A stretch of DNA of 64,000 bases from Schmidtea polychroa (lineage: Eukaryota), in assembly GCA_044892525.1 (NCBI GenBank), contig CM097885.1, positions 8,372,001 to 8,436,000 of the forward strand, read 5' to 3'. The position numbers were made by a program, and so were the translations under genes. Shown piece after piece: positions 12,859-41,058 of the stretch. The notes beneath the pieces were generated by a model. That model worked only from the letters and a program-made list of their open reading frames with translations, did not search any database and had not been told where the DNA came from. Each line of letters starts with the position of its first letter. Positions within the stretch are counted from its first letter, which is position 1.

Positions 12859-12909
<51 letters not shown>

Positions 12910-13020: not shown

Positions 13021-13065
<45 letters not shown>

Positions 13066-13242: not shown

Positions 13243-13278
<36 letters not shown>

Positions 13279-13389
13279 GTTAACGAAAAATCTAAAATAT
13301 GGTTTACACACACAACCCATTAAACTTTATTATTATTAACGCAAATATTAGTGAAAAACCTAAAATATTTTTTACACGACCCATTAAAC

Positions 13390-13428
<39 letters not shown>

Positions 13429-13683
13429 GCAAATATTAGTCAAAAACATAAAATATTTTTACACACACACAACCCATTAACCATTATTATTATTGCAAAT
13501 ATTAGTCAAAAACATAAAAACACTCATTAACCATTATTATTATCAATATTCGTGAAAACCTCAAATATTTTTTTCCACACACACACAACCCATTAAACTT
13601 TATTATTATTATTATTATAATTATTATTATTATTAGTGAAAAAACCTTAAATAATTTTTACATACTAAGTTATGGGGTAGAGT
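11043..13683 (+). repeat. ~2.64-kb tandem duplication spanning the A/B insertion junction
   Basis: 11043-~12950 is near-identical to 13684-~15640, and ~12300-13683 is near-identical to ~9690-11042. The TSD plus terminus junction therefore appears twice, 2641 bp apart. Confidence 0.85.
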
Positions 13684-15050
13684 AGTAGTAGGATGTGTCC
13701 CCGCCAGATCAGGTCCCCTCCAGATCACATATACCCCCTCCCCCCCCCCCCCCCCGGGAAAAAATTTTATTTTTTTTTAGAACGATGCCTAATATTTTTA
13801 GAACTATTACGTAATCAATGCCTAATATTTTTAGAACGATGCCTAATATTTTTAGAACTATTACGTAATTTTTTTTAAATTAAGTGATCCAGCGGGGACC
13901 TACTTTTTTTCTTCCCAAAAGTAATGTTCCCGCCAACAAATTTTATTAACCGATACCTCATCTTAAAGCTCAGTCCAAGACCTTTCGAATGAGCTATAAG
14001 TATCTTATATATCTTTAATAGTTTTAATGTTATTAACAATTGATGACCACCATCTTTTCAACGTTAAATTATTATTATTTTTCAAAATATTATTAAGTGA
14101 TCCAGCGGGGACCTACTTTTTTTCATCCCAAAAATTATTGTTCCCGCCAACATATTATATTGATCGATAGCTTATTTTAAAGCTCTGTGCAAGAACTTTC
14201 TAATGAGATATAGATTTTTATCATACGATGACTCATCACATTTTTAGAACGATTACGTCATACTTTTAGAACGATGCCTAATATTTTTAGAACGATGCCT
14301 CTTATTTTTAGAACGATTACGTCATACTTTTAGAATGGTGCCTAATATTTTTAGAACGATGCCTTTTAATTTTAGAACGATGCCAAATATTTTTAGAATG
14401 GTGCCTAATATTTTTAGAACGATGCCTTTTAATTTTAGAACGATGCCAAATATTTTTAGAATGGTGCCTAATATTTTTAGAACGATTACGTCATACTTTT
14501 AGAACGATGTCTAATGTTTTTAGAACGATGCCTAATATTTTTAGAACTATTACGTAATCGATGTCTAATATTTTTAGAACGATGCCAAATATTTTTAGAA
14601 CGATGCCAAATATTTTTAGAACGATGCCTAATATTTTTAGAACGATTACGTCATACTTTTAGAACGATGTCTAATATTTTTAGAACGATGCCTAATATTT
14701 TTAGAACGATGCCTAATATTTTTAGAACGATTACGTCATATTTTTAGAACGATGTCTAATATTTTTAGAACGATGCCAAATATTTTTAGAACTAATAATT
14801 TTTGTTTTAATTATCGAATACGTAATAATATAATTTTGTTTAAATCGTTGATTACATATTATTATTTTCTAAGTTTTATTATTATTATTATTATTATAAT
14901 TATATATACTCCGAGTTTATCCGGCAAGATATTCTTTCCCCTATGGGTACTGCTCACAAATGTACTACTCACATTCAACAAGTCACAAGGGTACTGCTCA
15001 CACTCAATATGTCGTAAATTATTATTATTATTATTTCAAATACAAGTTCA

Positions 15051-15141
<91 letters not shown>

Positions 15142-15503
15142 TATTATTACGCGCACGGGGAATATTATTATCATATATACTCTTAATCTATCCGACAAAA
15201 TATTCTATCCCTCTATGGGTATTGCTCATATGGGTAATGGTCAAAGGTGTACTACTCACATTCAACATGTCTCAAAGGGTATAATATAATTATTATTAAA
15301 TTCTGACCAACTTAAATCAATGAAGGGGTAGAACAAAAATATATTAAGTTGCGGTATTTTAAATTTAAAAATATTTTAAAAACTTATTTTGACACTAAAG
15401 TTTACTTAATTAACAAAGAGATAATTATTGCACATGCTTTGCATAAATATTATTATTTTTTAAATTTTCAATATTTTCTTTTAAAGTATTAACACGCGCG
15501 GGA

Positions 15504-15605
<102 letters not shown>

Positions 15606-16149
15606 GTTAATGAAAAATCTAAAATATGGTTTACACACACAACCCCTCAACCATTATTATTATTATCAGTATTAAAAACCTAAAATATTTTCTACACACA
15701 CACAACCCATTAACCATTATTATTATCATTATTAGTGAAAACCTAAAATATTTTTTACACACACACACACACAACCCATTAACCATTATTATTATCAATA
15801 TTAAAAACCTAAAATATTTTTACACACACACACACAACCCATTAAACTTTATTATTATTATTATTAAAATAATTTTTACACACTAGGTTATGGGGTAGAG
15901 AATTATTATATGTTTGCAGTATTCTGTATTTGCCTTTACATGAAATTTTCAATAAGGAGCGATAATTTTACACATACATTCTATATACACATACCTTGTT
16001 TAACATGGGTGTATATACTCCTAGTCTATCCGACAAGATATTCTGTCCCCCTATGGGTATTGCTAGCAAGGGTACTACTCACACTCAACAAGGGTTTTCG
16101 ATCTTAAAGCATATTATGGTTTATTAAGGTTAGTAAATAAAACTTATCA

Positions 16150-16645
16150 CACACACTATTTAAACGATAAAAATCAAGACAAGAGAGGACAAGGCAAAGT
16201 GTATGCATTTAGTATTGCCAGGCCTAATGAGCAGTGACCAAATATCTGTGCCTGAAAGACACGGTGGATATTTGTTCGCGTCCACAAGGGTCGTCTGTGC
16301 CTCCCCCAAGTGGGGTCAGAAGAACCTGGGCATTATAGCTTTCCGTACGGAACATTACGCCTAGCATGGGTAGTCAACTACCAGCACATTCGAAACGTAT
16401 AATTTCAAAATACATGCGTCATTGGCACTATAACCAAATTAATTAATGTTTTCACTAACACAAATATATATTTACAGAGGCCTCCCACTAGTTGGATTAC
16501 AACCGCCCACCACGACGATCAGCTTGTAAATATATATTAATTAAGGGATAAAGAGGACCCACCCAACCCTATTATATTTAATTTACAAATTTTTCTCGCT
16601 CTTCTGCTGGTATTCTATCTCAAAATTATCATCTCCATCGGGCCA
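16150..16645. other. Conserved GC-rich, hairpin-dense non-coding island (candidate structured RNA or ssDNA signal); copies at ~28445-28940 (inverted), ~31645-32140 and ~37440-37940 (inverted)
   Basis: Hairpins caaatatc...gatatttg, cccc-aagt-gggg, ttccgtacggaa, ggtag-tcaa-ctacc, and a 14-bp stem aatatatatttaca...tgtaaatatatatt. Essentially identical in A and B although the flanks differ. Confidence 0.5.
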
Positions 16646-17553
16646 TTTGGAATACATCTTGCGAATTGGACATATTTCTTAGTTTCTGATGTGGTGTCAA
16701 CTATCATTGCTAAAATTTATATTGATTTAAAAGCAATTAACTTACATTATCTAACATTTTATCGTCACAGGCTTGATAAATTAGGCAACTGTTATTTGTG
16801 GTATACTTTTTCAATGTCATTTCCCACCATAAAACACAGATACCTAAATATAATATATATATTTTAAAGAATTAATTCATGTCTTACATTAATAATAATA
16901 TTCTTCAGGTAGTACTTTACAATATCTAATTGATAAAACATCGGTTTTTTCCCATTTTTCTTGACATTCGTTGAAAGTTTACATAATTTAAGTCTGATAA
17001 TTCATGTTGAAGGACACCCACAATCAGCTAATTCATTTAAGAAATCCCGAACATAGCAATGTTTCACCATTTTGTCTGGTTCATTTTCTTCTATAATTCA
17101 TGTTTTAATAAGAAATCTCTAAATCCAGAACATAAGTCATTTAGTGTTTCACCATTTTGTTCATCTTCTTCATAATTATATAATTCATTTTCTTCATTAC
17201 TAAGTAAAATAATTAAAATATTTTAGTAAATTCTTTATTTACTTACTTTATGGATACTAAAACGAAAGAAATAACGTTATATCAGAATTATATTTAAATA
17301 ATTTAAATTTAGTTATTTAAACATATTTAAACACTTTAGTTATTTAAGCATATTTAAACATTAATATTATTATATAGTATAATTTTATATAATTTTATAT
17401 AATATTATAATATTATAATATTATGTATTGTAAATTTAATATATCCTTCATTTAATTTTTTTAATTCAAATATTTATAATGAAGATTCTTTGAATTAAAA
17501 AATATTCTGTTAGTATTTCCAGGCAGAAAACAACGAATTCAATAATTAAAATC

Positions 17554-20500
17554 TTAATTTTCATGTTGTTAGGGTTGTGGCCAGAAGTTAATCGCCATCT
17601 AATCGTTTGTTCTCAATTTCGCTCATTTTTGTTCAAAACATTCAGGTGAGTTGTTATCTGGAAAGTTTCTTTGAGCTCAGTTTTGTTAAAACACTCACGG
17701 TATTTTTGAGGGACGTGACACTGGAAATAAATTACCAATGGGTGGTCATCCATACATGTTGTTGGTTTGAACTGTTGATTTATTTTAGAAATATGTATAT
17801 TAAAAACATTTAAGGTATCATTCAGTAAAATAATATAGTATTTTTGAGTATTTTTAGTTAATTTATAAATAACAGTATTTTGATATATCAATAAAGACCA
17901 TATACTCCTAGTTTATCCGACAAAATATTCTGTCCCCCTATGGGTATTGCTAGCAAGGGTACTGGTCACACTCAACATGTCGCAATATTAATCATTTAGA
18001 AATTCTTTGGTAATTTAGTGAGATGATCGTGAATATTTTAAATGTAACTTTACACTTATGTCGAGCGACTAATTTATTGGTTAACTTTGTAGTCATTTAA
18101 AGCAAAAATTAATTTATTCATCTAATGTTCGTTACAATAGATAATAATATGAGAAAAACATGGTCATTATTCATTGATAATTTTAAATTCTTTATCATTT
18201 GGAGTAAATTTGTTTGAGGCAAAAATAATTAAAGGAGTCATAATAGAAATATGGTTATCATTTATCCAATTAAGGAGCCTATTATTTAGAAATATATATT
18301 ATAAAGTAACAATTATTTTCTAATTTAATTAGATGATCATTAGACGTAATATATCTTTGCGAGAAATTTAAGATGTTTGAGTAACCAAAACATGGACATT
18401 TTGTGCGATAAATTTATGAATATTGCTTAATTTTGTTATTTTTAGTCATTTAAAATAATATTTAGCAAAGGTAATTTAGCAAAATATCATTTATCCACCC
18501 GATAACAATATTCCTTCAATAGATTAACTGATATTCAACCTATTTAATTTCTGGAAATATAATTAAAATCATAAATTTCCTTCATGAAAGTTAAATTTTC
18601 TTTAGTTGTCGATGTCTAACTCTTTTAAGTCAATATTTTTGTTACCGTTATCTTCATAATGAATGTCCGTCTTTAAAATGTTAAATAAAATAATTTAAAG
18701 CAATAACCTTTGATATCAATTATCTCTAAATATTTCAAATATTGCATTGTCAAAACCAAGTAAATTAGTCATTACCCATTAATAAAACCGTGGATAATTA
18801 ATAAAAACTGGTTCTGAAACATAAATTACTGTGCAATAACATTCATCACAACCTCTAAAACGATATAATTTCACAGGAACTATTCATAGCTGACTATTTC
18901 CCTTGAAAATTTGATATTTTACCAATAAGAATATATAAATATTCAAAACATTAACCGATCCCTCACCAAATATCTTTACCCCTTAAAACACCTTAAATCG
19001 TATATATTACCATCTTAACCTTCACTAAATCCAACCGAATATAATTTCATCCACTTGTGCCCTTTAATAAATCTTAAAATCTATAGAAAATTCTTCAAAA
19101 TATAAATTTTATTTAATTGTCACAGACATTCTTCCATTGAAATAATTTAGTAGCTAAATTCAAAGAGTCCACTAAAAGATCAAAATTCATTAAAATAAAT
19201 ATTTAACCACATGTGTCATCAAATACCTAACTAGAGATGATAATATCTCATTGATTGATCATAATTATAACCATTATAACATGATATATCTTTCAAACTA
19301 AATTTAGGTATATTTTACAATAATTTTCAAGTAGATTTTAAATATATCATCATCGTGAAAAAATTAGATTGTTTCAACTTTAGATTTTCAATATTTTAAA
19401 GTTCATCAATGTGTAAATATTCTTAGAAAAATATATGAAAAAATTATTTAGTCAAATTATCATTACAAAGTCATCATCATCATCAAAATTAATAAAATAT
19501 AGCAAATTATCAAGAAATTAATTAAATTTATCTTAGAATTAACACTAAACCTTAAATATTCTTTCAATTAACATGAAATTCACAAAAAAATATTAGTAAA
19601 ATCCCGCTAACTCTAAAAATTACCAACGAATTTAATGCTAAATAATAACCAAAAATTTGCCTAAATAAAACACACCAGTACCTTTACGACCAGTACCCTT
19701 ACGAGCAGTATCAATTGTGAACAGTACCCATAGAGGGAGAAAATATCTTGTCGGATAAACTCAGAGTATATATAATAAAACGAATTAACAATAACTCCAT
19801 CAAATTGAATCAGTCAAATTAACACAAATTTTGATAAAAAATCTTATTCTAAAATGGTAAGAAGCGTAAAGTCGTTAATTTTCATGTTGTTAGGGTTGTG
19901 GCCAGAAGTTAATCGCCATCTAATCGTTTGTTCTCAATTTCGCTCATTTTTGTTCAAAACATTCAGGTGAGTTGTTATCTGGAAAGTTTCTTTGAGCTCA
20001 GTTTTGTTAAAACACTCACGGTATTGATCCAGATAACATGGTCATTATTCATTGATAATTTTAAATTCTTTATCATTTGGAGTAAATTTGTTTGAGGCAA
20101 AAATAATTAAAGGAGTCATAATAGAAATATGGTTATCATTTAACCAAATAAGGTGCTTATTAGTTAAAAATATAAAGTAACAATTCTTTTCTAATTTAAT
20201 TAGATGATCATTAGACGTAATATATCTTTGCGAGAAATTTAAGATGTTTGAGTAACCAAAACATTGATATTTTGGGTCATCAATTTATGAATAGTGCTTA
20301 ATTTTCTCATTTTTAGTGATTTAAAATAATATTTAGCAAAGGTAATTTGGCAAAATATCACTTATCCATCCGATAATAATATTCCTTCAATAGATTAACT
20401 GATATTCAACCGATTTAATTTCTAATTAAAATCATAAAATTCCTTCAATAAAGATCAATTTTCTTTAGCCGTTGTCGATTTCCAACTTTTAAGTCAATAT

Positions 20501-21760
20501 TTCTCAAGTTTTGTCACTGATGTCCCCACAATGAATAAAATAACTTCTTAAGTAAATAATTTAAAGCAATAACCTTTGATATCAATCCCAATTAATTCTA
20601 AAGATTTCAAATATTTCATTGTGAAAACCAAGTAAATTGATCATTAACCCTAAACGACTTAATAAAACAGTGGATAATTAATAAAAAACTGGTTCTAAAA
20701 CATAAATTTAAATTACTGTGCAATAACATTCATCACAACCTAATAAACCTCTAAAACGATATAATTTCACAGGAACTATTATTAATTCATAGCTAAATAC
20801 TGACTATTTCCCTTTAAAATTTACCAATAAGAACATTGTCGATTTAAATAGAGATTTTAAACATTTCCACCAAATATTTCTATCATTTTAAACACCCCCT
20901 TAAAAATCATATATTACCATCTTAACCAACCGACTTTAATATATCAGACCTTTAATATATCAATTCTCTTAAAATCCATAGAAAATTCTTCAAAATATGA
21001 ATTTTATTTAATTGTTACAGACATCCTTCCATTGAAATAATTTAGTATCTAAATTCATGTAGTAAGAGCCCACTAAAAGATCAAAATTCACTAAAATCAA
21101 TATTTTCTACAAATATTTCACCACATTTACCATCAAATACCTAACTAGAGATGAAATATATTGATTGATCATAATTCTTCATCGATTCAGCTAATTATAT
21201 AGCAATTATAACGTGATATATCTTTCAAAATCACAAATTTCAGTATATTTTACAATAATTTTTACAAAAATTAAATAATAATCACTTGATTATTGTAAAA
21301 ACTCTAATTATTAACCTAACTGTCATTAAAAATATTATTATTTAAAAGTAAATTTAAAAACAAGTCAATAAAATATAGCAAATTAACAAGAAATTAATTA
21401 AATTTGTCTTAGAATTAACACTAAAACGTTAAATTTCAAAATATTCTTTCAATTATTCACAAAAAGGTTAGTAATAATGTTAGTAAAATCCCGCTAACTC
21501 TAAAAATTACCAATGAAATTAATGCTAAATAATAACCAAAAATTTGCCTAAATAAAACACACCAGTACCTTTACGACCAGTACCCTTACAACCAGTACCC
21601 TTACGAGCAGTACCCATAGAGGGAGAAAATATCTTGTCGGATAAACTCAGAGTATATATAATAAAACGAATTAACAATAACTCCATCAAATTGAATCAGT
21701 CAAATTAACACAAATTTTGATAAAAAATCTTATTCTAAAATGGTAAGAAGCGTAAAGTCG
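17554..21760 (+). repeat. Diverged internal direct duplication within the arm of B (17554-19873 vs 19874-21760), mirrored at ~22610-26815
   Basis: Both units start ttaattttcatgttgttagggttgtggcc and end aaaatggtaagaagcgtaaagtcg. The second lacks ~450 bp and differs by many indels. Confidence 0.85.
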
Positions 21761-24700
21761 AAAGATAATTTTAATAACACCGAGATAAATTAACAATATT
21801 ATTCTCAGGTGGTAAGAATCTTCATTAAAGTGAAGAAATTATAAGAACTACCAAATGCTATAAAATATTTAAACGAAATTAGTTTTGTTGTTTTATGACT
21901 TTCGGTTATATTTGAGTAAGTTTTCGATTGTCCCTTTTAACTTTCAGTGCTCATTTTCATTCAAAAGAGTAATGTATCTTAAATTATCTTTTGGAATATT
22001 TGTTTTTGAAATAATTAGTGTAAAATAGTAAATTTAATAATAAATTGTTAATATTAAAGGACTTAAAGAATAATTTAAAATATGAATTTATCATAATTAC
22101 TCTGTCAAATACAATTCACGGTTTCTTATGTAATAAAATAATCATTTGGGGATTAAATACTTTATTAAATAAAAGTTTATCGCATTATTAAAATATTTTA
22201 ATTCGTTAGTAGCTCATATAATAGAAATAATTTTATATATCCTCATCACTTATAGCCGCCGATTCTCGATTTCCCAATAATTATTATCATTTATATTCTC
22301 CCGGCAAATATTTCTTTTAAAATTGTATTAAATATTTTTTATTAAAGTGATCATTTTTATGAATTTTTATGAATTTTATGAAATAATTTTAAATAAATAC
22401 AATTAATATATATCCATGCCACTTCTCAGTATATTTTCATTAACCTTCCATAATCCAATAATGAATTATTCTAACACTTATTTTACCCCTTTGAAGTTTA
22501 TTATTAATTTATCACAGAATAATAAATAATTTCCTAACTTTAATGAAGATTCTTACCACCTGAGAATAATATTGTTAATTTATCTCGGTGTTATTAAAAT
22601 TATCTTTCGACTTTACGCTTCTTAACATTTTAGAATAAGATTTTTTATCAAAATTTGTGTTAATTTGACTGATTCAATTTGATGGAGTTATTGTTAATTC
22701 GTTTTATTATATATACTCTGAGTTTATCCGACAAGATATTTTCTCCCTCTATGGGTACTGCTCGTAAGGGTACTGGTTGTAAGGGTACTGGTCGTAAAGG
22801 TACTGGTGTGTTTTATTTAGGCAAATTTTTGGTTATTATTTAGCATTAAATTCATTGGTAATTTTTAGAGTTAGCGGGATTTTACTAACATTATTACTAA
22901 CCTTTTTGTGAATAATTGAAAGAATATTTTGAAATTTAACGTTTTAGTGTTAATTCTAAGACAAATTTAATTAATTTCTTGTTAATTTGCTATATTTTAT
23001 TGACTTGTTTTTAAATTTACTTTTAAATAATAATATTTTTAATGACAGTTAGGTTAATAATTAGAGTTTTTACAATAATCAAGTGATTATTATTTAATTT
23101 TTGTAAAAATTATTGTAAAATATACTGAAATTTGTGATTTTGAAAGATATATCACGTTATAATTGCTATATAATTAGCTGAATCGATGAAGAATTATGAT
23201 CAATCAATATATTTCATCTCTAGTTAGGTATTTGATGGTAAATGTGGTGAAATATTTATAGAAAATATTGATTTTAGTGAATTTTGATCTTTTAGTGGGC
23301 TCTTACTACATGAATTTAGATACTAAATTATTTCAATGGAAGGATGTCTGTAACAATTAAATAAAATTCATATTTTGAAGAATTTTCTATGGATTTTAAG
23401 AGAATTGATATATTAAAGGTCTGATATATTAAAGTCTGTTGGTTAAGATGGTAATATATGATTTTTAAGGGGGTGTTTAAAATGATAGAAATATTTGGTG
23501 GAAATGTTTAAAATCTCTATTTAAATCGACAATGTTCTTATTGGTAAATTTTAAAGGGAAATAGTCAGTATTTAGCTATGAATTAATAATAGTTCCTGTG
23601 AAATTATATCGTTTTAGAGGTTTATTAGGTTGTGATGAATGTTATTGCACAGTAATTTAAATTTATGTTTTAGAACCAGTTTTTTATTAATTATCCACTG
23701 TTTTATTAAGTCGTTTAGGGTTAATGATCAATTTACTTGGTTTTCACAATGAAATATTTGAAATCTTTAGAATTAATTGGGATTGATATCAAAGGTTATT
23801 GCTTTAAATTATTTACTTAAGAAGTTATTTTATTCATTGTGGGGACATCAGTGACAAAACTTGAGAAATATTGACTTAAAAGTTGGAAATCGACAACGGC
23901 TAAAGAAAATTGATCTTTATTGAAGGAATTTTATGATTTTAATTAGAAATTAAATCGGTTGAATATCAGTTAATCTATTGAAGGAATATTATTATCGGAT
24001 GGATAAGTGATATTTTGCCAAATTACCTTTGCTAAATATTATTTTAAATCACTAAAAATGAGAAAATTAAGCACTATTCATAAATTGATGACCCAAAATA
24101 TCAATGTTTTGGTTACTCAAACATCTTAAATTTCTCGCAAAGATATATTACGTCTAATGATCATCTAATTAAATTAGAAAAGAATTGTTACTTTATATTT
24201 TTAACTAATAAGCACCTTATTTGGTTAAATGATAACCATATTTCTATTATGACTCCTTTAATTATTTTTGCCTCAAACAAATTTACTCCAAATGATAAAG
24301 AATTTAAAATTATCAATGAATAATGACCATGTTATCTGGATCAATACCGTGAGTGTTTTAACAAAACTGAGCTCAAAGAAACTTTCCAGATAACAACTCA
24401 CCTGAATGTTTTGAACAAAAATGAGCGAAATTGAGAACAAACGATTAGATGGCGATTAACTTCTGGCCACAACCCTAACAACATGAAAATTAACGACTTT
24501 ACGCTTCTTACCATTTTAGAATAAGATTTTTTATCAAAATTTGTGTTAATTTGACTGATTCAATTTGATGGAGTTATTGTTAATTCGTTTTATTATATAT
24601 ACTCTGAGTTTATCCGACAAGATATTTTCTCCCTCTATGGGTACTGTTCACAATTGGTACTGCTCGTAAGGGTACTGGTCGTAAAGGTACTGGTGTGTTT

Positions 24701-26957
24701 TATTTAGGCAAATTTTTGGTTATTATTTAGCATTAAATTCGTTGGTAATTTTTAGAGTTAGCGGGATTTTACTAATATTTTTTTGTGAATTTCATGTTAA
24801 TTGAAAGAATATTTAAGGTTTAGTGTTAATTCTAAGATAAATTTAATTAATTTCTTGATAATTTGCTATATTTTATTAATTTTGATGATGATGATGACTT
24901 TGTAATGATAATTTGACTAAATAATTTTTTCATATATTTTTCTAAGAATATTTACACATTGATGAACTTTAAAATATTGAAAATCTAAAGTTGAAACAAT
25001 CTAATTTTTTCACGATGATGATATATTTAAAATCTACTTGAAAATTATTGTAAAATATACCTAAATTTAGTTTGAAAGATATATCATGTTATAATGGTTA
25101 TAATTATGATCAATCAATGAGATATTATCATCTCTAGTTAGGTATTTGATGACACATGTGGTTAAATATTTATTTTAATGAATTTTGATCTTTTAGTGGA
25201 CTCTTTGAATTTAGCTACTAAATTATTTCAATGGAAGAATGTCTGTGACAATTAAATAAAATTTATATTTTGAAGAATTTTCTATAGATTTTAAGATTTA
25301 TTAAAGGGCACAAGTGGATGAAATTATATTCGGTTGGATTTAGTGAAGGTTAAGATGGTAATATATACGATTTAAGGTGTTTTAAGGGGTAAAGATATTT
25401 GGTGAGGGATCGGTTAATGTTTTGAATATTTATATATTCTTATTGGTAAAATATCAAATTTTCAAGGGAAATAGTCAGCTATGAATAGTTCCTGTGAAAT
25501 TATATCGTTTTAGAGGTTGTGATGAATGTTATTGCACAGTAATTTATGTTTCAGAACCAGTTTTTATTAATTATCCACGGTTTTATTAATGGGTAATGAC
25601 TAATTTACTTGGTTTTGACAATGCAATATTTGAAATATTTAGAGATAATTGATATCAAAGGTTATTGCTTTAAATTATTTTATTTAACATTTTAAAGACG
25701 GACATTCATTATGAAGATAACGGTAACAAAAATATTGACTTAAAAGAGTTAGACATCGACAACTAAAGAAAATTTAACTTTCATGAAGGAAATTTATGAT
25801 TTTAATTATATTTCCAGAAATTAAATAGGTTGAATATCAGTTAATCTATTGAAGGAATATTGTTATCGGGTGGATAAATGATATTTTGCTAAATTACCTT
25901 TGCTAAATATTATTTTAAATGACTAAAAATAACAAAATTAAGCAATATTCATAAATTTATCGCACAAAATGTCCATGTTTTGGTTACTCAAACATCTTAA
26001 ATTTCTCGCAAAGATATATTACGTCTAATGATCATCTAATTAAATTAGAAAATAATTGTTACTTTATAATATATATTTCTAAATAATAGGCTCCTTAATT
26101 GGATAAATGATAACCATATTTCTATTATGACTCCTTTAATTATTTTTGCCTCAAACAAATTTACTCCAAATGATAAAGAATTTAAAATTATCAATGAATA
26201 ATGACCATGTTTTTCTCATATTATTATCTATTGTAACGAACATTAGATGAATAAATTAATTTTTGCTTTAAATGACTACAAAGTTAACCAATAAATTAGT
26301 CGCTCGACATAAGTGTAAAGTTACATTTAAAATATTCACAAATTTCTGATTATCTTACCTAAGAATTTCTAAATGATTAATATTGCGTCTTGTTGAGTGT
26401 GACCAGTACCCTTGCTAGCAATACCCATAGGGGGACAGAATATTTTGTCGGATAAACTAGGAGTATATGGTCTTTATTGATATATCAAAATACTGTTATT
26501 TATAAATTAACTAAAAATACTCAAAAATACTATATTATTTTACTGAATGATACCTTAAATGTTTTTAATATACATATTTCTAAAATAAATCAACAGTTCA
26601 AACCAACAACATGTATGGATGACCACCCATTGGTAATTTATTTCCAGTGTCACGTCCCTCAAAAATACCGTGAGTGTTTTAACAAAACTGAGCTCAAAGA
26701 AACTTTCCAGATAACAACTCACCTGAATGTTTTGAACAAAAATGAGCGAAATTGAGAACAAACGATTAGATGGCGATTAACTTCTGGCCACAACCCTAAC
26801 AACATGAAAATTAAGATTTTAATTATTGAATTCGTTGTTTTCTGCCTGGAAATACTAACAGAATATTTTTTAATTCAAAGAATCTTCATTATAAATATTT
26901 GAATTAAAAAAATTAAATGAAGGATATATTAAATTTACAATACATAATATTATAATA

Positions 26958-27668
26958 CAAGGGTGGGCACGCATGGGTTCAATAAGAGCCATTTTCCGAA
27001 AATTTATTTTTTCCAGAGCCACCATAGTAAAGTACATATTTTTTTTTATTTCATTAATTTGATTAAAGAGACTTAAACGCTATTAAAAAAAACAAAATAA
27101 TTATTTCAAACATTAAGTAACAAACATAAAAATCCATTAATAAAAAGTAATAAAATTTCTTGAATTAACGAAGACTTTTGGTCAAATCTTTGAAATTTGG
27201 TGTATACTTTGTTAAAGCTGTTCGCAGCAATTCTGTAAGATGCTGATTGGTCAACTGTGAATGATATTTCGACTTTACGAACTTCATTGTGGAGTACAAA
27301 GATTCACAACAATATGTTGTACCAAAAATTGAAATTAAACGGCAAGCAGCTTGTTTTAAGTTTGGATATTTTGCCTCTGGTACGAGTTTCCAAAATTCAA
27401 CTATAGAAGTAGATTTATGGTGCATTTGCAAAGCCTGGTCATCTTTCATATCTAATAACTCCAATTCCCCAACCGCTTTTTTAACAAGTATTACTTCAGA
27501 AATTGGAAATCCATCTTCAATAATATCACAAATAAATGGGTTCACAAAAAATGCAAATGTAGATTTATAAAATCGAATTCGATTATCAAGAATTCAATTA
27601 TCAATGAGCCGCAGTTTACTCAACGAAGAGCCGCATGCGGCTCTAAGAGCCGCATTTGCCCACCGTTG
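26958..27668 (-). mobile_element. Internally deleted hAT (Buster/SPIN/Charlie-like) element, 711 bp, present only in the right arm of B
   Basis: TIR caagggtgggca/tgcccaccgttg (1 mismatch); 8-bp TSD TTATAATA (26950-26957, 27669-27676; nnnTAnnn type). Absent at the mirror site (~17400-17425). Confidence 0.9.
27165..27545 (-). pseudogene. hAT transposase C-terminal dimerisation domain fragment
   Basis: EFWKLVPEAKYPNLKQAACRLISIFGTTYCCESLYSTMKFVKSKYHSQLT matches the hAT dimerisation pattern (FW...YP.L...A..L.S...TTY.CE..FS). Confidence 0.88.
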
Positions 27669-29485
27669 TTATAATATTATAATATTATATAAAATTATAT
27701 AAAATTATACTATATAATAATATTAATGTTTAAATATGCTTAAATAACTAAAGTGTTTAAATATGTTTAAATAACTAAATTTAAATTATTTAAATATAAT
27801 TCTGATATAACGTTATTTCTTTCGTTTTAGTATCCATAAAGTAAGTAAATAAAGAATTTACTAAAATATTTTAATTATTTTACTTAGTAATGAAGAAAAT
27901 GAATTATATAATTATGAAGAAGATGAACAAAATGGTGAAACACTAAATGACTTATGTTCTGGATTTAGAGATTTCTTATTAAAACATGAATTATAGAAGA
28001 AAATGAACCAGACAAAATGGTGAAACATTGCTATGTTCGGGATTTCTTAAATGAATTAGCTGATTGTGGGTGTCCTTCAACATGAATTATCAGACTTAAA
28101 TTATGTAAACTTTCAACGAATGTCAAGAAAAATGGGAAAAAACCGATGTTTTATCAATTAGATATTGTAAAGTACTACCTGAAGAATATTATTATTAATG
28201 TAAGACATGAATTAATTCTTTAAAATATATATATTATATTTAGGTATCTGTGTTTTATGGTGGGAAATGACATTGAAAAAGTATACCACAAATAACAGTT
28301 GCCTAATTTATCAAGCCTGTGACGATAAAATGTTAGATAATGTAAGTTAATTGCTTTTAAATCAATATAAATTTTAGCAATGATAGTTGACACCACATCA
28401 GAAACTAAGAAATATGTCCAATTCGCAAGATGTATTCCAAATGGCCCGATAGAGATGATAATTTTGAGATAGAATACCAGCAGAAGAGCGAGAAAAATTT
28501 GTAAATTAAATATAATAGGGTTGGGTGGGTCCTCTTTATCCCTTAATTAATATATATTTACAAGCTGATCGTCGTGGTGGGCGGTTGTAATCCAACTAGT
28601 GGGAGGCCTCTGTAAATATATATTTGTGTTAGTGAAAACATTAATTAATTTGGTTATAGTGCCAATGACGCATGTATTTTGAAATTATACGTTTCGAATG
28701 TGCTGGTAGTTGACTACCCATGCTAGGCGTAATGTTCCGTACGGAAAGCTATAATGCCCAGGTTCTTCTGACCCCACTTGGGGGAGGCACAGACGACCCT
28801 TGTGGACGCGAACAAATATCCACCGTGTCTTTCAGGCACAGATATTTGGTCACTGCTCATTAGGCCTGGCAATACTAAATGCATACACTTTGCCTTGTCC
28901 TCTCTTGTCTTGATTTTTATCGTTTAAATAGTGTGTGTGATAAGTTTTATTTACTAACCTTAATAAACCATAATATGCTTTAAGATCGAAAACCCTTGTT
29001 GAGTGTGAGTATTACCCTTGCTAGCAATACCCATAGGGGGACAGAATATCTTGTCGGATAGACTAGGAGTATATACACCCATGTTAAACAAGGTATGTGT
29101 ATATAGAATGTATGTGTAAAATTATCGCTCCTTATTGAAAATTTCATGTAAAGGCAAATACAGAATACTGCAAACATATAATAATTCTCTACCCCATAAC
29201 CTAGTGTGTAAAAATTATTTTAATAATAATAATAATAAAGTTTAATGGGTTGTGTGTGTGTGTGTAAAAATATTTTAGGTTTTTAATATTGATAATAATA
29301 ATGGTTAATGGGTTGTGTGTGTGTGTGTGTGTAAAAAATATTTTAGGTTTTCACTAATAATGATAATAATAATGGTTAATGGGTTGTGTGTGTGTGTAGA
29401 AAATATTTTAGGTTTTTAATACTGATAATAATAATAATGGTTGAGGGGTTGTGTGTGTAAACCATATTTTAGATTTTTCATTAAC

Positions 29486-29551
<66 letters not shown>

Positions 29552-29913
29552 TCCCGCGCGTGTTAATACTTTAAAAGAAAATATTGAAAATTTAAAAAAT
29601 AATAATATTTATGCAAAGCATGTGCAATAATTATCTCTTTGTTAATTAAGTAAACTTTAGTGTCAAAATAAGTTTTTAAAATATTTTTAAATTTAAAATA
29701 CCGCAACTTAATATATTTTTGTTCTACCCCTTCATTGATTTAAGTTGGTCAGAATTTAATAATAATTATATTATACCCTTTGAGACATGTTAAATGTGAG
29801 TAGTACACCTTTGACCATTACCCATATGAGCAATACCCATAAAGGGATAGAATATTTTGTCGGATAGATTAAGAGTATATATGATAATAATATTCCCCGT
29901 GCGCGTAATAATA

Positions 29914-29992
<79 letters not shown>

Positions 29993-32900
29993 TGAACTTG
30001 TATTTGAAATAATAATAATAATAATTTACGACATATTGAGTGTGAGCAGTACCCTTGTGACTTGTTGAATGTGAGTAGTACATTTGTGAGCAGTACCCAT
30101 AGGGGAAAGAATATCTTGCCGGATAAACTCGGAGTATATATAATTATAATAATAATAATAATAATAAAACTTAGAAAATAATAATATGTAATCAACGATT
30201 TAAACAAAATTATATTATTACGTATTCGATAATTAAAACAAAAATTATTAGTTCTAAAAATATTTGGCATCGTTCTAAAAATATTAGACATCGTTCTAAA
30301 AATATGACGTAATCGTTCTAAAAATATTAGGCATCGTTCTAAAAATATTAGGCATCGTTCTAAAAATATTAGACATCGATTACGTAATAGTTCTAAAAAT
30401 ATTAGGCATCGTTCTAAAAATATTAGACATCGTTCTAAAAGTATGACGTAATCGTTCTAAAAATATTAGGCATCGTTCTAAAAATATTTGGCATCGTTCT
30501 AAAAATATTTGGCATCGTTCTAAAAATATTAGACATCGATTACGTAATAGTTCTAAAAATATTAGGCATCGTTCTAAAAATATTAGACATCGTTCTAAAA
30601 GTATGACGTAATCGTTCTTAAAATATTAGGCACCATTCTAAAAATATTTGGCATCGTTCTAAAATTAAAAGGCATCGTTCTAAAAATATTAGGCACCATT
30701 CTAAAAATATTTGGCATCGTTCTAAAATTAAAAGGCATCGTTCTAAAAATATTAGGCACCATTCTAAAAGTATGACGTAATCGTTCTAAAAATAAGAGGC
30801 ATCGTTCTAAAAATATTAGGCATCGTTCTAAAAGTATGACGTAATCGTTCTAAAAATGTGATGAGTCATCGTATGATAAAAATCTATATCTCATTAGAAA
30901 GTTCTTGCACAGAGCTTTAAAATAAGCTATCGATCAATATAATATGTTGGCGGGAACAATAATTTTTGGGATGAAAAAAAGTAGGTCCCCGCTGGATCAC
31001 TTAATAATATTTTGAAAAATAATAATAATTTAACGTTGAAAAGATGGTGGTCATCAATTGTTAATAACATTAAAACTATTAAAGATATATAAGATACCTA
31101 TAGCTCATTCGAAAGGTCTTGGACTGAGCTTTAAGATGAGGTATCGGTTAATAAAGTTTGTTGGCGGGAACATTACTTTTGGGAATAAAAAAAGTAGGTC
31201 CCCGCTGGATCACTTAATTTAAAAAAAATTACGTAATAGTTCTAAAAATATTAGGCATCGTTCTTAAAATATTAGGCATTGATTACGTAATAGTTCTAAA
31301 AATATTAGGCATCGTTCTAAAAAAAATAAAATTTTTTCCCGGGGGGGGGAGGGGGTATATGTGATCTGGAGGGGACCTGATCTGGCGGGGACACATCCTA
31401 CTACTTAGAGTATTATTATGTTTGCAGTATTCTGTGTTTGCCTTTACAGGAAGTTGTCAATAAGGAGCGATAATTTTACACACACATTCTATATACACAT
31501 ACCTTGTTTAACATGGGTGTATATACTCCTAGTCTATCCGACAAAATATTCTGTCCCCCTATGGGTATTGCTCACAAAGGTACTACTCACACTCAACATA
31601 TCGCAAGGGTATATTAATTATGGTTAGTAAATAAAACCTATCACACACACTATTTAAACGATAAAAATCAAGACAAGAGAGGACAAGGCAAAGTGTATGC
31701 ATTTAGTATTGCCAGGCCTAATGAGCAGTGACCAAATATCTGTGCCTGAAAGACACGGTGGATATTTGTTCGCGTCCACAAGGGTCGTCTGTGCCTCCCC
31801 CAAGTGGGGTCAGAAGAACCTGGGCATTATAGCTTTCCGTACGGAACATTACGCCTAGCATGGGTAGTCAACTACCAGCACATTCGAAACGTATAATTTC
31901 AAAATACATGCGTCATTGGCACTATAACCAAATTAATTAATGTTTTCACTAACACAAATATATATTTACAGAGGCCTCCCACTAGTTGGATTACAACCGC
32001 CCACCACGACGATCAGCTTGTAAATATATATTAATTAAGGGATAAAGAGGACCCACCCAACCCTATTATATTTAATTTACAAATTTTTCTCGCTCTTCTG
32101 CTGGTATTCTATCTCAAAATTATCATCTCCATCGGGCCATTTGATAGTGATTTCATGGAATACATCTTGCAAATTGGACGTATTTCTTAGTTTCTGATGC
32201 GGTGTCAACTATCATTGCTAAAATTTATATTGATTTAAAAGCAATTAACTTACATTATCTAGCATTTTATCGTCACAGGATTGATAAATTAGGCAACTGT
32301 TATTTGTGGTATACTTTTTCAATGTCATTTCCCACCATAAAACACAGATACCTAAATATAATATATATATTTTAAAGAATTAATTCATGTCTTACATTAA
32401 TAATAATATTCTTCAGGTAGTACTTTACAATATCTAATTGCTAAAACATCGGTTTTTCCCATTTTTCTTGACAATCGTTGAAAGTTTACATAATTTAAGT
32501 CTGATAATTCATGTTGAAGGACACCCACAATCAGCTAATTCATTTAAGAAATCCGGAACTATAACTCCTTTAGTGTTTCACCATTTTGTCTGGTTCATTT
32601 TCTTCTATAATTCATGTTTTAATAAGAAATTTCTAAATCCAGAACATAAGTCATTTAGTGTTTCACCATTTTGTCTGGTTCATCTTCTTCATAATCATAT
32701 AATTCATTTTCTTCATTACTAAGTAAAATAATTAAAATATTGTAGTAAATTCTTTATTTACTTACTTTATGGATACTAAAACGAAAGAAATAAAGTTATA
32801 TCAAAAGTATATTTAAATAAATTAAATTTAAATAATTTAATTTAGTTATTTAAATATATTTAAACACTTTAGTTATTTAAGCATATTTAAACATTAATAT

Positions 32901-35900
32901 AACATTAATATAAACATTAATATATAGTATAATTTTATATAATTTTATATAATATTATAATATTATAATATTATGTATTGTAAATTTAATATATCCTTAA
33001 TTTAATTTTTTAAATTCAAAAATTTATAATGAAGATTCTTTGAATTAAAAAATATTCTGTTAGTATTTCCAGGCAGAAAACAACGAATTCAATAATTAAA
33101 ATCTTAATTTTCATGTTGTTAGGGTTGTGGCCAGAAGTTAATCGCCATCTAATCGTTTGTTCTCAATTTCGCTCATTTTTGTTCAAAACATTCAGGTGAG
33201 TTGTTATCTGGAAAGTTTCTTTGAGCTCAGTTTTGTTAAAACACTCACGGTATTTTTGAGGGACGTGACACTGGAAATAAATTACCAATGGGTGGTCATC
33301 CATACATGTTGTTGGTTTGAACTGTTGATTTATTTTAGAAATATGTATATTAAAAACATTTAAGGTATCATTCAGTAAAATAATATAGTATTTTTGAGTA
33401 TTTTTAGTTAATTTATAAATAACAGTATTTTGATATATCAATAAAGACCATATACTCCTAGTTTATCCGACAAAATATTCTGTCCCCCTATGGGTATTGC
33501 TAGCAAGGGTACTGGTCACACTCAACAAGACGCAATATTAATCATTTAGAAATTCTTAGGTAAGATAATCAGAAATTTGTGAATATTTTAAATGTAACTT
33601 TACACTTATGTCGAGCGACTAATTTATTGGTTAACTTTTTAGACATTTAAAGCAAAAGGTAATTTATTCATCTAATGTTCGTTACAATAGATAATAATGA
33701 GAAAAACATGGTCATTATTCATTGATAATTTTAAATTCTTTATCATTTGGAGTAAATTTGTTTGAGGCAAAAAATAATTAAAGGAGTCATAATAGAAATA
33801 TGGTTATCATTTAACCAAATAAGGTACTTATTAGTTAAAAATATATATTATAAAGTAACAATTATTTTCTAATTTAATTAGATGATCATTAGACGTAATA
33901 TATCTTTGCGAGAAATTTAAGATGTTTGAGTAACCAAAACATTGATATTTTGGATCATCAATTTATGAATAGTGCTTAATTTTCTCATTTTTAGTGATTT
34001 AAAATAATATTTAGCAAAGGTAATTTGGCAAAATATCACTTATCCATCCGATAACAATATTCCTTCAATAGATTAACTGATATTCAACCGATTTAATTTC
34101 TAATTAAAATCATAAAATTCCTTCAATAAAGATCAATTTTCTTTAGCCGTTGTCGATTTCCAACTTTTAAGTCAATATTTCTCAAGTTTTGTCACTGATG
34201 TCCCCACAATGAATAAAATAACTTCTTAAGTAAAATAATTTAAAGCAATAACCTTTGATATCAATCCCAATTAATTCTAAAGATTTCAAATATTTCATTG
34301 TGAAAACCAAGTAAATTGATCATTAACCCTAAACGACTTAATAAAACAGTGGATAATTAATATAAAACTGGTTCTAAAACATAAATCTAAATTACTGTGC
34401 AATAACATTCATCACAACCTAATAAACCTCTAAAACGATATAAGTTCACTGGAATTATTATTAATTCATAGCTAAATACTGACTATTTCCCTTTAAAATT
34501 TTACCAATAAGAACATTGTCGATTTAAATAGAGATTTCAAACATTTCCACCTTAACCGATCCCTCACCAAATATTTCTATCATTTTAAACACCTTAAAAA
34601 TCGTATATTACCATCTTAACCAACCGACTTTAATATATCAGACCTTTAATATATCAATTCTCTTAAAATCCATAGAAAATTCTTCAAAATATGAATTTTA
34701 TTTATTTGTTACAGACATCAGTCCATTGAAATAATTTAGTATCTAAATTCATGTAGTAAGAGCGCATTAAAAAAATCAAAATTCACTAAAATCAATATTT
34801 TCTACAAATATTGATTTTAGTGAATTTTGATTTTTTTAATGGGCTCTTACTACATGAATTTAGAAACTAAATTATTTCAATGGACTGATGTCTGTAACAA
34901 ATAAATAAAATTCATATTTTGAAGAATTTTCTATGGATTTTAAGAGAATTGATATATTAAAGGTCTGATATATTAAAGTCGGTTGGTTAAGATGGTAATA
35001 TACGATTTTTAAGGTGTTTAAAATGATAGAAATATTTGGTGAGGGATCGGTTAAGGTGGAAATGTTTGAAATCTCTATTTAAATCGACAATGTTCTTATT
35101 GGTAAAATTTTAAAGGGAAATAGTCAGTATTTAGCTATGAATTAATAATAATTCCAGTGAACTTATATCGTTTTAGAGGTTTATTAGGTTGTGATGAATG
35201 TTATTGCACAGTAATTTAGATTTATGTTTTAGAACCAGTTTTATATTAATTATCCACTGTTTTATTAAGTCGTTTAGGGTTAATGATCAATTTACTTGGT
35301 TTTCACAATGAAATATTTGAAATCTTTAGAATTAATTGGGATTGATATCAAAGGTTATTGCTTTAAATTATTTTACTTAAGAAGTTATTTTATTCATTGT
35401 GGGGACATCAGTGACAAAACTTGAGAAATATTGACTTAAAAGTTGGAAATCGACAACGGCTAAAGAAAATTGATCTTTATTGAAGGAATTTTATGATTTT
35501 AATTAGAAATTAAATCGGTTGAATATCAGTTAATCTATTGAAGGAATATTGTTATCGGATGGATAAGTGATATTTTGCCAAATTACCTTTGCTAAATATT
35601 ATTTTAAATCACTAAAAATGAGAAAATTAAGCACTATTCATAAATTGATGATCCAAAATATCAATGTTTTGGTTACTCAAACATCTTAAATTTCTCGCAA
35701 AGATATATTACGTCTAATGATCATCTAATTAAATTAGAAAATAATTGTTACTTTATAATATATATTTTTAACTAATAAGTACCTTATTTGGTTAAATGAT
35801 AACCATATTTCTATTATGACTCCTTTAATTATTTTTTGCCTCAAACAAATTTACTCCAAATGATAAAGAATTTAAAATTATCAATGAATAATGACCATGT

Positions 35901-38421
35901 TTTTCTCATTATTATCTATTGTAACGAACATTAGATGAATAAATTACCTTTTGCTTTAAATGTCTAAAAAGTTAACCAATAAATTAGTCGCTCGACATAA
36001 GTGTAAAGTTACATTTAAAATATTCACAAATTTCTGATTATCTTACCTAAGAATTTCTAAATGATTAATATTGCGTCTTGTTGAGTGTGACCAGTACCCT
36101 TGCTAGCAATACCCATAGGGGGACAGAATATTTTGTCGGATAAACTAGGAGTATATGGTCTTTATTGATATATCAAAATACTGTTATTTATAAATTAACT
36201 AAAAATACTCAAAAATACTATATTATTTTACTGAATGATACCTTAAATGTTTTTAATATACATATTTCTAAAATAAATCAACAGTTCAAACCAACAACAT
36301 GTATGTATGACTACCCATTGTTAATTTATTTCCAGTGACACGTCCCTCAAAAATACCGTGAGTGTTTTAACAAAACTGAGCTCAAAGAAACTTTCCAGAT
36401 AACAACTCACCTGAATGTTTTGAACAAAAATGAGCGAAATTGAGAACAAACGATTAGATGGCGATTAACTTCTGGCCACAACCCTAACAACATGAAAATT
36501 AAGATTTTAATTATTGAATTCGTTGTTTTCTGCCTGGAAATACTAACAGAATATTTTTTAATTCAAAGAATCTTCATTATAAATATTTGAATTTAAAAAA
36601 TTAAATTAAGGATATATTAAATTTACAATACATAATATTATAATATTATAATATTATATAAAATTATATAAAATTATACTATATATTAATGTTTATATTA
36701 ATGTTTATATTAATGTTTAAATATGTTTAAATAACTAAATTAAATTATTTAAATTTAATTTATTTAAATATACTTTTGATATAACTTTATTTCTTTCGTT
36801 TTAGTATCCATAAAGTAAGTAAATAAAGAATTTACTACAATATTTTAATTATTTTACTTAGTAATGAAGAAAATGAATTATATGATTATGAAGAAGATGA
36901 ACCAGACAAAATGGTGAAACACTAAATGACTTATGTTCTGGATTTAGAAATTTCTTATTAAAACATGAATTATAGAAGAAAATGAACCAGACAAAATGGT
37001 GAAACACTAAAGGAGTTATAGTTCCGGATTTCTTAAATGAATTAGCTGATTGTGGGTGTCCTTCAACATGAATTATCAGACTTAAATTATGTAAACTTTC
37101 AACGATTGTCAAGAAAAATGGGAAAAACCGATGTTTTAGCAATTAGATATTGTAAAGTACTACCTGAAGAATATTATTATTAATGTAAGACATGAATTAA
37201 TTCTTTAAAATATATATATTATATTTAGGTATCTGTGTTTTATGGTGGGAAATGACATTGAAAAAGTATACCACAAATAACAGTTGCCTAATTTATCAAT
37301 CCTGTGACGATAAAATGCTAGATAATGTAAGTTAATTGCTTTTAAATCAATATAAATTTTAGCAATGATAGTTGACACCGCATCAGAAACTAAGAAATAC
37401 GTCCAATTTGCAAGATGTATTCCATGAAATCACTATCAAATGGCCCGATAGAGATGATAATTTTGAGATAGAATACCAGCAGAAGAGCGAGAAAAATTTG
37501 TAAATTAAATATAATAGGGTTGGGTGGGTCCTCTTTATCCCTTAATTAATATATATTTACAAGCTGATCGTCGTGGTGGGCGGTTGTAATCCAACTAGTG
37601 GGAGGCCTCTGTAAATATATATTTGTGTTAGTGAAAACATTAATTAATTTGGTTATAGTGCCAATGACGCATGTATTTTGAAATTATACGTTTCGAATGT
37701 GCTGGTAGTTGACTACCCATGCTAGGCGTAATGTTCCGTACGGAAAGCTATAATGCCCAGGTTCTTCTGACCCCACTTGGGGGAGGCACAGACGACCCTT
37801 GTGGACGCGAACAAATATCCACCGTGTCTTTCAGGCACAGATATTTGGTCACTGCTCATTAGGCCTGGCAATACTAAATGCATACACTTTGCCTTGTCCT
37901 CTCTTGTCTTGATTTTTATCGTTTAAATAGTGTGTGTGATAGGTTTTATTTACTAACCATAATTAATATACCCTTGCGATATGTTGAGTGTGAGTAGTAC
38001 CTTTGTGAGCAATACCCATAGGGGGACAGAATATTTTGTCGGATAGACTAGGAGTATATACACCCATGTTAAACAAGGTATGTGTATATAGAATGTGTGT
38101 GTAAAATTATCGCTCCTTATTGACAACTTCCTGTAAAGGCAAACACAGAATACTGCAAACATAATAATACTCTACCCCATAACTTAGTATGTAAAAATTA
38201 TTTAAGGTTTTTTCACTAATAATAATAATAATTATAATAATAATAATAATAAAGTTTAATGGGTTGTGTGTGTGTGGAAAAAAATATTTGAGGTTTTCAC
38301 GAATATTGATAATAATAATGGTTAATGAGTGTTTTTATGTTTTTGACTAATATTTGCAATAATAATAATGGTTAATGGGTTGTGTGTGTAAAAATATTTT
38401 ATGTTTTTGACTAATATTTGC

Positions 38422-38460
<39 letters not shown>

Positions 38461-38571
38461 GTTTAATGGGTCGTGTAAAAAATATTTTAGGTTTTTCACT
38501 AATATTTGCGTTAATAATAATAAAGTTTAATGGGTTGTGTGTGTAAACCATATTTTAGATTTTTCGTTAAC

Positions 38572-38604
<33 letters not shown>

Positions 38605-38781
38605 GTTTAATGGGTTGTGTGTGTGTGGAAAAAAATATATATTTTAGGTTTTCACTAATATTCATAATAATAATGGTTAATGAGTGTTTTTATGTTTTTG
38701 ACTAATATTTGTAATAATAATAATAATGGTTAATGGGTTGTGTGTGTGTAAAAATATTTTATGTTTTTGACTAATATTTGC

Positions 38782-38832
<51 letters not shown>

Positions 38833-38943
38833 GTTTAATGGGTCGTGTAAAAAATATTTTAGGTTTTTCACTAATATTTGCGTTAATAATAATAAAGTTT
38901 AATGGGTTGTGTGTGTAAACCATATTTTAGATTTTTCGTTAAC

Positions 38944-39036
<93 letters not shown>

Positions 39037-39398
39037 TCCCGCGCGTGTTAATACTTTAAAAGAAAATATTGAAAATTTAAAAAATAATAATATTTATGCA
39101 AAGCATGTGCAATAATTATGTCTTTGTTAATTAAGTAAACTTTAGTGTCAAAATAAGTTTTTAAAATATTTTTAAATTTAAAATACCGCAACTTAATATA
39201 TTTTTGTTCTACCCCTTCATTGATTTAAGTTGGTCAGAATTTAATAATAATTATATTATACCCTTTGAAACATGTTGAATGTGAGTAGTACACCTTTGAC
39301 CATTACCCATATGAGCAATACCCATAGAGGGATAGAATATTTTGTCGGATAGATTAAGAGCATATATGATAATAATATTCCCCGTGCGCGTAATAATA

Positions 39399-39462
<64 letters not shown>

Positions 39463-39867
39463 TGAACTTGTATTTGAAATAATAATAATAATAATTTACG
39501 ACATATTGAGTGTGAGCAGTACCCTTGTGACTTGTTGAATGTGAGTAGTACCTTTGTGACCATTACCCTTAGGGGGACAGAATATCTTGTCGGATAGACT
39601 AGGAGTATATATAATAATAATCATAATAATAATATTAATAATAATAATAATATTGATTAAAACTTTGAAAATAATTCTTTGAAAATAATACTTTGAACAA
39701 TATTTGATGTAAAAGTTCCTGAAATAATCATGAAAATGTTGAAAATCGTGAAAATATTGAAAATGTAGAAAATTATGAAAATATTGATAATTATTAAAAA
39801 ATGCAAATGATGAAAATGTTGAAAATCATGAAATTGATGTAGAAATTAAGTTTTATGAATAATTGCA

Positions 39868-39930
<63 letters not shown>

Positions 39931-41058
39931 TTTGAAAATAACATCTTCCACATGGGCGTTAATATTTTAAAAGAAAATATTGAAAATTAAAAAATAATAA
40001 TATGTAATCAACGATGTAAACAAATTATATTATTACGTATTCGATAATTAAAACAAAAAATTATATAATCAATGATTTAAACAAATTATATAATCAACGA
40101 TTTAAACAAAATTAAATTATTATATAATCGATAATTAAAACAAAATTATTAGTTCTAAAAATATTAGGCATCGTTCTAAAAGTATGACGTAATCATTCTA
40201 AAAATATTAGGCGTCGTTCTAAAAGTATGACGTAATCATTCTAAAAGTATTAGGCATCGTTCTAAAAATATTTGGCATCGTTCTAAAAATATTAGACATC
40301 GATTACGTAATAGTTCTAAAAATATTAGGCATCGTTCTAAAAATATGACGTAATCATTCTAAAAATATTAGGCATCGTTCTAAAAATATGTGGCATCGTT
40401 CTAAAATTATGACGTAATCAATCTAAAAATATTTGGCATCATTCTAAAATATTAGACATCATTCTAAAAATGTGATGAGTCATTGTCTTTGTTCTAAAAA
40501 TGTGATGAGTCATCGTATGATAAAAATCTATATCTCATTAGAAAGTTCTTGCACAGAGCTTTAAAATAAGCTATCGATCAATATAATATGTTGGCGGGAA
40601 CAATAATTTTTGGGATGAAAAAAAGTAGGTCCCCGCTGGATCACTTAATAATATTTTGAAAAATAATAATAATTTAACGTTGAAAAGATGGTGGTCATCA
40701 ATTGTTAATAACATTAAAACTATTAAAGATATATAAGATACCTATAGCTCATTCGAAAGGTCTTGGACTGAGCTTTAAGATGAGGTATCGTTCAATAAAA
40801 TTTGTTGGCGGGAACATTACTTTTGGGAAGAAAAAAAGTAGGTCACCGCTGGACCAATTAATTTAAAAAAAATTACGTAATAGTTCTAAAAATATTAGGC
40901 ATCGTTCTAAAAATATTAGGCATTGATTACGTAATAGTTCTAAAAATATTAGGCATCGTTCTAAAAAAAAAAAATAAAATTTTTTCCCGGGGGGGGAGGG
41001 GGTATATGTGATCTGGAGGGGACCTGGTCTGGGGAGCCCACATCCTACTACTAACAAT

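Follow-up and report, generated by a model that had tools for sequence, protein, structure and literature searches.

At the centre of element A, a palindrome within which a second element is nested, two arms of 6.2 kb meet across a loop of five nucleotides, which raises the question of whether this junction records the birth of a giant palindrome or a later change to a copy that was already palindromic. The first-pass annotation had favoured the former, proposing that a nascent 3' end folded back on a pre-existing 7-bp mini-hairpin and primed the copying of the whole arm. The window analysed here, a stretch of 64,000 nt from Schmidtea polychroa (assembly GCA_044892525.1, contig CM097885.1), was compared with other copies of the same family across the 781 Mb genome.

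Organization of the nested elements

Self-alignment, together with the positions of the termini, delimited element A (8168-41052, contig positions 8380168-8413052; target duplication AACAAT) and element B, a member of the same family inserted in the left arm of A (Table 1); the sequence AGTAGTAGG opens each of them. When B is disregarded, A measures 12.5 kb, comprising the two 6.2-kb arms and the 5-nt loop, and its arms pair perfectly over 36 bp and without gaps over 1,900 bp, with 7 mismatches. Element B had been described as a non-rearranged homologue in which unrelated sequence follows the mini-hairpin. It was instead shown to be palindromic itself, with inner arms of 4,432 nt and a spacer of 683 nt, and the mini-hairpin is followed by 725 nt of further arm, mirrored on the right.

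The A/B junction is tandemly duplicated over 2.64 kb (11043-13683), likely because the left arms of A and B underwent unequal exchange. A 1.9-kb internal duplication of B, the units of which are 79% identical, is mirrored in both arms (18157-21760 and 22608-26211), which points to arm-to-arm copying. The right arm of B alone harbours a 710-bp insertion (26958-27668) with a fragment of a hAT dimerisation domain (PF05699).

Element A interrupts a retrotransposon-like pol sequence, with an rve frame on one side and a polymerase-like frame, recognized by eye, on the other. No ORF of at least 100 aa was found between 31412 and 38174 of A, and elsewhere in A just short, repeat-derived frames were present, as judged by ORF length rather than by a Pfam scan. 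Metazoan SRP RNA (Rfam) was matched weakly in both arms of A (31919-32017 and 37563-37661; 29.6 bits, E 8e-5), at a level below the gathering score. The nested elements are flanked by two copies, 92% identical, of a gene fragment with a TFIIB repeat (PF00382; 3113-4465 and 49708-51067), presumably Brf1-like. At 53841-58987, a retrotransposon-like gag and zinc-knuckle ORF is followed by ORFs for a Monjiviricetes-type fusion glycoprotein (PF24664), these ORFs being bracketed by 870-bp direct repeats (52500-53373 and 59779-60645).

Table 1. Features of elements A and B, with positions in the window
Feature	Position	Strand	Remarks
A left arm, outer part	8168..11042	+	Begins with the AGTAGTAGG terminus; AACAAT duplication at 8162-8167
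A left arm, inner part, past the B insertion	31412..34800	+	
A right arm	34806..41052	-	AACAAT duplication at 41053-41058
Element B, same family, within A left arm	11043..31405	.	TAGAGT duplication at 11037-11042 and 31406-31411
Spacer, standard in the family	21843..22525	+	683 nt in B, ~694 nt in most copies; missing from A
A centre junction	7-bp stem 34794-34800 / 34806-34812, loop 34801-34805	.	Single copy in the genome
Uncut 7-bp mini inverted repeat, B left arm	21099..21117	+	1,366 exact uncut sites in the genome
Mirror copy of the mini repeat, B right arm	23251..23269	-	Its AAATATT (23263-23269) repeats 21111-21117 in direct orientation

A high-copy family of gene-less palindromes

The family of A is gene-less, is present in high copy and has ends of Polinton type, with AGTAGT termini and a 6-bp target duplication. 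The standard copy, a ~14-kb palindrome consisting of an arm, a ~694-nt spacer and a second arm, was found more often than any other form in a set of 28 paired copies, which were drawn from the first 100 of the 1,366 uncut sites plus four close relatives of A. The spacer is present in high copy, with 2,552 candidates, of which 40 were scored and found to be full-length (40/40). In total, 1,491 terminal motifs were identified in the genome, with many terminus pairs located 13.6-14.7 kb apart. Within the window, AGTAGTAG, a short tandem terminal repeat, was present at all five family termini, and a perfect 6-bp target duplication was found in 9 of 12 other terminus pairs. The mini inverted repeat is located ~730 nt outward of the spacer in both arms.

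Among the closest relatives of A, which match it at 99-100% across the 413 nt compared, are palindromes with two arms and longer centres. The two arms of one copy were shown to resemble each other much more than copies resemble one another, and near-identical arms were also observed in spacer-bearing copies such as L004, with 2 substitutions in 4,642 nt. A literature search retrieved no description of this palindromic family, although Repbase and paper supplements, which were outside its scope, may describe the family.

Polymerase-coding palindromes in the same genome

A pPolB gene in the window (44624-47233; PF03175) represents a second family, whose terminus (AGTAGTATGTAG) lies at ~43607. 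Among 52 scored pPolB copies, 28 make up 14 divergent inverted pairs, and each of the 12 centres fetched was palindromic, 11 of them with distinct loops of 192-2,652 nt. A 6-bp duplication was present in both elements for which two ends were located. In this family (L081-L120), which also has AGTAGT termini, each arm carries PolB and an ORF of ~250 aa, the latter returning no Pfam match; the window copy (43607-47830) shows one arm. A segment of 110-135 nt is common to the pPolB palindromes and the family of A at 76-79%. Sequence resembling the terminal region of the A family at 79-86% is present in the centres of two PolB palindromes (L085:5197-5386 and L094:4997-5351).

To look for a linear autonomous parent, we inspected 10 kb on the inner side of 20 apparently solo PolB copies, and found a second inverted arm in 14 and none in six. 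Sixteen ORFs neighbouring solo PolB copies matched host or retrotransposon families or nothing; matches to a Polinton ATPase, protease or capsid family were absent.

The junction at the centre of element A

The assembled sequence reads aatcAATATTT-TCTAC-AAATATTgatt at 34790-34816, confirming the tight hairpin tip AATATTT-TCTAC-AAATATT (34794-34812) that had been reported for A. The pre-existing mini inverted repeat claimed for B was likewise recovered, uncut and with a perfect 7-bp stem: aatcAATATTT (21099-21105 for the stem) is followed by tctac, AAATATT (21111-21117) and tcaccac.

Microhomology of at least 7 nt was observed in 0.19% of 200,000 random arm-to-arm junctions (p about 0.002), and the 7-nt match in A is thus beyond chance, indicating that the join was homology-guided. 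The mini-hairpin is weak (-2.2 kcal/mol with DNA parameters) and of a common type in the 26% GC arm, representing one of 54 stems of at least 7 bp with loops of at most 10 nt within 4,689 nt, most of which derive from a single (AT)n run. Matches to Rfam miRNA families at the hairpin tip did not reach the gathering score and are accounted for by the hairpin alone. The junction has one copy in the genome, versus 1,366 exact uncut sites. It is real in the assembly, homology-guided and of an ordinary kind, and had been over-read as the origin of the palindrome.

Element A as a shortened copy of the standard palindrome

Compared with a natural copy (L025), A exhibits a single deletion of 2,159 nt with 7-nt microhomology, one AAATATT having been retained. 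In B, the corresponding AAATATT copies (21111-21117 and 23263-23269) lie in direct orientation across the centre, and joining them reproduces the centre of A letter for letter. When the parent is palindromic, this mini inverted repeat doubles as a direct repeat across the centre, and microhomology deletion and fold-back therefore yield the same junction. Since the standard copy is already palindromic and A is a derivative lacking 2,159 nt, the giant palindrome predates the junction of A. The proposed fold-back origin is accordingly retained in part: a join guided by a 7-nt repeat stands, with self-priming still compatible with it, whereas its reading as the birth of the giant palindrome fails on the palindromic state of the standard copy.

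We consider A to be an already palindromic, gene-less copy from which 2,159 nt of the centre probably disappeared in a single jump, guided by homology, from one 7-nt AAATATT repeat to another, and assign a probability of about 0.57 to this reading. How the deletion proceeded, including arm pairing, the polymerase involved and the timing, is inferred as follows. The inner arms may pair as a stem, either in a cruciform or in the single-stranded racket proposed for Polintons, and this pairing would set the symmetric 7-nt repeats side by side. A polymerase could then slip across the stem, or, after a central break, resected ends could be joined through the 7-nt match; the outer arms would each be passed down from the parent copy. 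The outcome would represent a one-off end point of centre erosion rather than the birth of a palindrome. Some bias to symmetry is needed for the deletion, as, of the 2,117 deletions of at most 5 kb that are possible with at least 7 nt of homology, just 28 (1.3%) leave a loop of at most 10 nt.

Fold-back during replication of a palindromic copy

A tentative alternative, to which we give distinctly less weight, is that the whole right arm was remade, before a single integration, in the course of extrachromosomal, protein-primed replication of a palindromic copy, once a nascent 3' end had snapped back on the 7-bp hairpin or paired with the displaced arm, which has the same sequence. Junction lengths and letters are equal under both routes, and therefore the junction of A alone cannot separate deletion from fold-back. 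The coincidence of 7-nt homology with a 5-nt loop is what fold-back would produce, but the hairpin is weak and common, and the junction is single-copy. Element A bears a direct 6-bp target duplication, indicating that copying did not extend into the flank; any fold-back would consequently have had to predate integration and to have taken place off the chromosome.

Snap-back defective viral genomes are comparable products of template switching. A doubtful, still less probable extension of the fold-back scenario is that A derives from a Polinton-type replicon as a snap-back defective genome: gene-less and polymerase-coding palindromes would re-copy their arms in protein-primed replication, and a switch at the 7-bp hairpin would have remade the 6-kb arm before integration. 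The presence of pPolB-coding palindromes in the same genome is consistent with fold-back, as is the template switching by Phi29 polymerase that, according to the part of PMC4974454 used here, gives subgenomic molecules.

The arms of A differ by 14 substitutions plus indels. Seven private substitutions were located on the right arm and one on the left, which is the direction predicted by fold-back, but this skew is not significant (p=0.07) and other copies are likewise right-leaning (78/130). Six of the eight inner-arm differences are family polymorphisms, and a cluster at 33268-33300 matches B, likely reflecting local gene conversion; gene-conversion-like patches are general in the family. The far greater likeness of arms within than between copies suggests regular arm-to-arm copying, which is also in keeping with fold-back. 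The two mechanisms were not distinguished by this arm-allele analysis.

Centres of other family members

Innermost gaps in 58 two-armed copies, a sample with 20 loci chosen for short spacing and hence non-random, ranged from 234 nt to more than 3,600 nt, and centre deletions were frequent. Five independent events have breaks inside the asymmetric spacer and represent unambiguous deletions (L001/L024, L012, L013/L027, L023 and L066), with 0-2 nt of microhomology or a templated insert. The other resolved arm-to-arm joins spanning the centre exhibited 0-6 nt of microhomology, the 7 nt of A being the longest, and many arm-to-arm joins have one break at most ~50 nt from the arm-spacer boundary. These junction counts omit seven rows and several more that scored poorly or lay in tandem repeats, and 6 of the 20 short-spaced loci gave no junction against the references. 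Templated insertions were observed at the centre junctions of L036, L055, L077 and L027, which we take to resemble polymerase-theta end joining. In L019/L020, a 9-nt direct repeat marks a deletion within an arm, indicating that long microhomology need not mean fold-back.

Tight hairpins (loop of at most 60 nt, stem of at least 40 bp) were searched for in 128 loci and the window, and A and four others were identified (L036, L077, L106 and L116), the latter with loops of 1-57 nt. Comparison with uncut copies (one comparator in the case of L036) revealed no prior hairpin in any of these four, the junctions of which displayed 0-1 nt of homology or templated inserts. The general association of family centres with short inverted repeats that had been predicted thus largely failed (0/4 other tight hairpins), and the formation of tight centres without prior hairpins argues against fold-back in A. 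Similarly, a search of gaps of 12-42 nt recovered zero copies with the (AT)n run of the arm at their centre, a further point against fold-back, to be read with the shortness of this run in most copies.

The exceptions are two junctions in the spacer that represent true strand switches with long loops, one in L026, with 6 nt and an imperfect inverted repeat, and one in L048/L049, with 9 nt, the latter being a single event in duplicated flanks. Such junctions, with 6-9 nt of homology, speak for fold-back, as the 7 nt of A is closer to these, but their loops are about 290-345 nt. L026 and L048 are better fold-back candidates than A. In both, part of the spacer was copied inverted, extending the palindrome inward (L026:4514-4865 and L048:6024-6233). 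L078 is not counted among these strand switches.

Artefact and palindrome birth as explanations

An artefact of library preparation or assembly, whether an amplification or sequencing polymerase jumping over the inner stem-loop or a consensus dictated by chimeric fold-back reads, is improbable. It would account for a junction seen once in 781 Mb and for two private substitutions of A within 60 nt of the hairpin tip, but the direct 6-bp target duplication, the 20-kb insertion in one arm only and the 14 substitutions plus indels between the arms indicate that the palindrome as a whole is no read chimera, and many other copies assemble with their centres intact. As independent sequence, contigs (rather than raw reads) of six public runs from two studies, out of 16 runs, were compared with the junction. 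Among the matches listed, none crosses 34812-34813, which, as contigs drop rare variants, does not imply absence of the junction, and most contig loose ends behind 34812 carry the uncut form. Contig depth past 34813 in three runs likely stems from arm contigs fitting the mirror position.

That fold-back converted a linear, non-palindromic precursor into a giant palindrome at this junction is nearly refuted, for although the junction has the form of textbook palindrome formation at short inverted repeats, the precursor type is palindromic (arm-spacer-arm), the closest relatives of A include two-armed palindromes with longer centres, B is a palindrome with no hairpin at its centre, and 1,366 uncut sites stand against one cut site.

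Implications

Where the family is palindromic to begin with, the scar of a fold-back cannot be told by sequence from a direct-repeat deletion, and such a scar can neither date nor explain the palindrome. The junction of A itself is a routine microhomology event. Its setting is of greater interest, consisting of hundreds of ~14-kb palindromes with Polinton-type ends and of two-armed, polymerase-coding relatives. The high likeness of arms within copies, together with the polymerase-coding palindromes, makes the racket/panhandle model of Polinton replication testable, and the centres of the A family also make the erosion of giant palindromes in animal genomes testable.

Comparison with known systems

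In the 'nearly precise excision' of Tn10 and the centre-break deletion of long palindromes, the centre is lost between short symmetric sites and a shorter palindrome is left, asymmetric deletions being frequent. Unlike Tn10, the A family is eukaryotic and has 6-kb arms, and most of its deletions begin near the arm-spacer boundary with 0-3 nt of microhomology or templated inserts.

In palindromes, inverted repeats end up in direct orientation, which drives secondary deletions, as set out in the sections of PMC4689423 drawn on here. Element A resembles the secondary deletions and short-inverted-repeat systems covered there (ODIRA and fold-back priming) in having a 7-bp interrupted inverted repeat at its junction and in that inverted repeats become direct and are deleted between; the background density of short inverted repeats is also similar, at one per ~240 bp in yeast. 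It differs in that its transposon substrate was already palindromic and in its loop of 5 nt, compared with 17 bp for the smallest stable one in those sections.

For the Polinton and phi29 comparison, parts of PMC6431247 and PMC4974454 provided background. A protein-primed, strand-displacing polymerase that switches template, such as that of phi29 (PMC4974454, in the part used), would give products of this kind, A being known as an integrated sequence.

Polinton/Maverick elements, as characterized in parts of bioRxiv 2023.08.22.554363 and PMC4196379, have target duplications of 5-8 (typically 6) bp, a short tandem terminal repeat, terminal inverted repeats of 100-1,500 bp, and genes for pPolB, integrase, protease, ATPase and capsids. 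Both the 6-bp target duplication and the short tandem terminal repeat (AGT) are found in the A family, and protein-primed PolB is encoded by a second family whose ends are similar. In contrast, A is gene-less and its 6.2-kb arms exceed 100-1,500 bp, while its PolB-coding relatives carry PolB twice, once per arm, with no integrase, ATPase, protease or capsid family in the ORFs scanned. On account of its terminal-repeat length and gene content, A is called a putative gene-less Polinton-type element rather than an autonomous Polinton. Its similar ends and the 110-135 nt segment shared at 76-79% with the pPolB-coding palindromes are indirect indications, from sequence, that the A family may be mobilised in trans by Polinton proteins.
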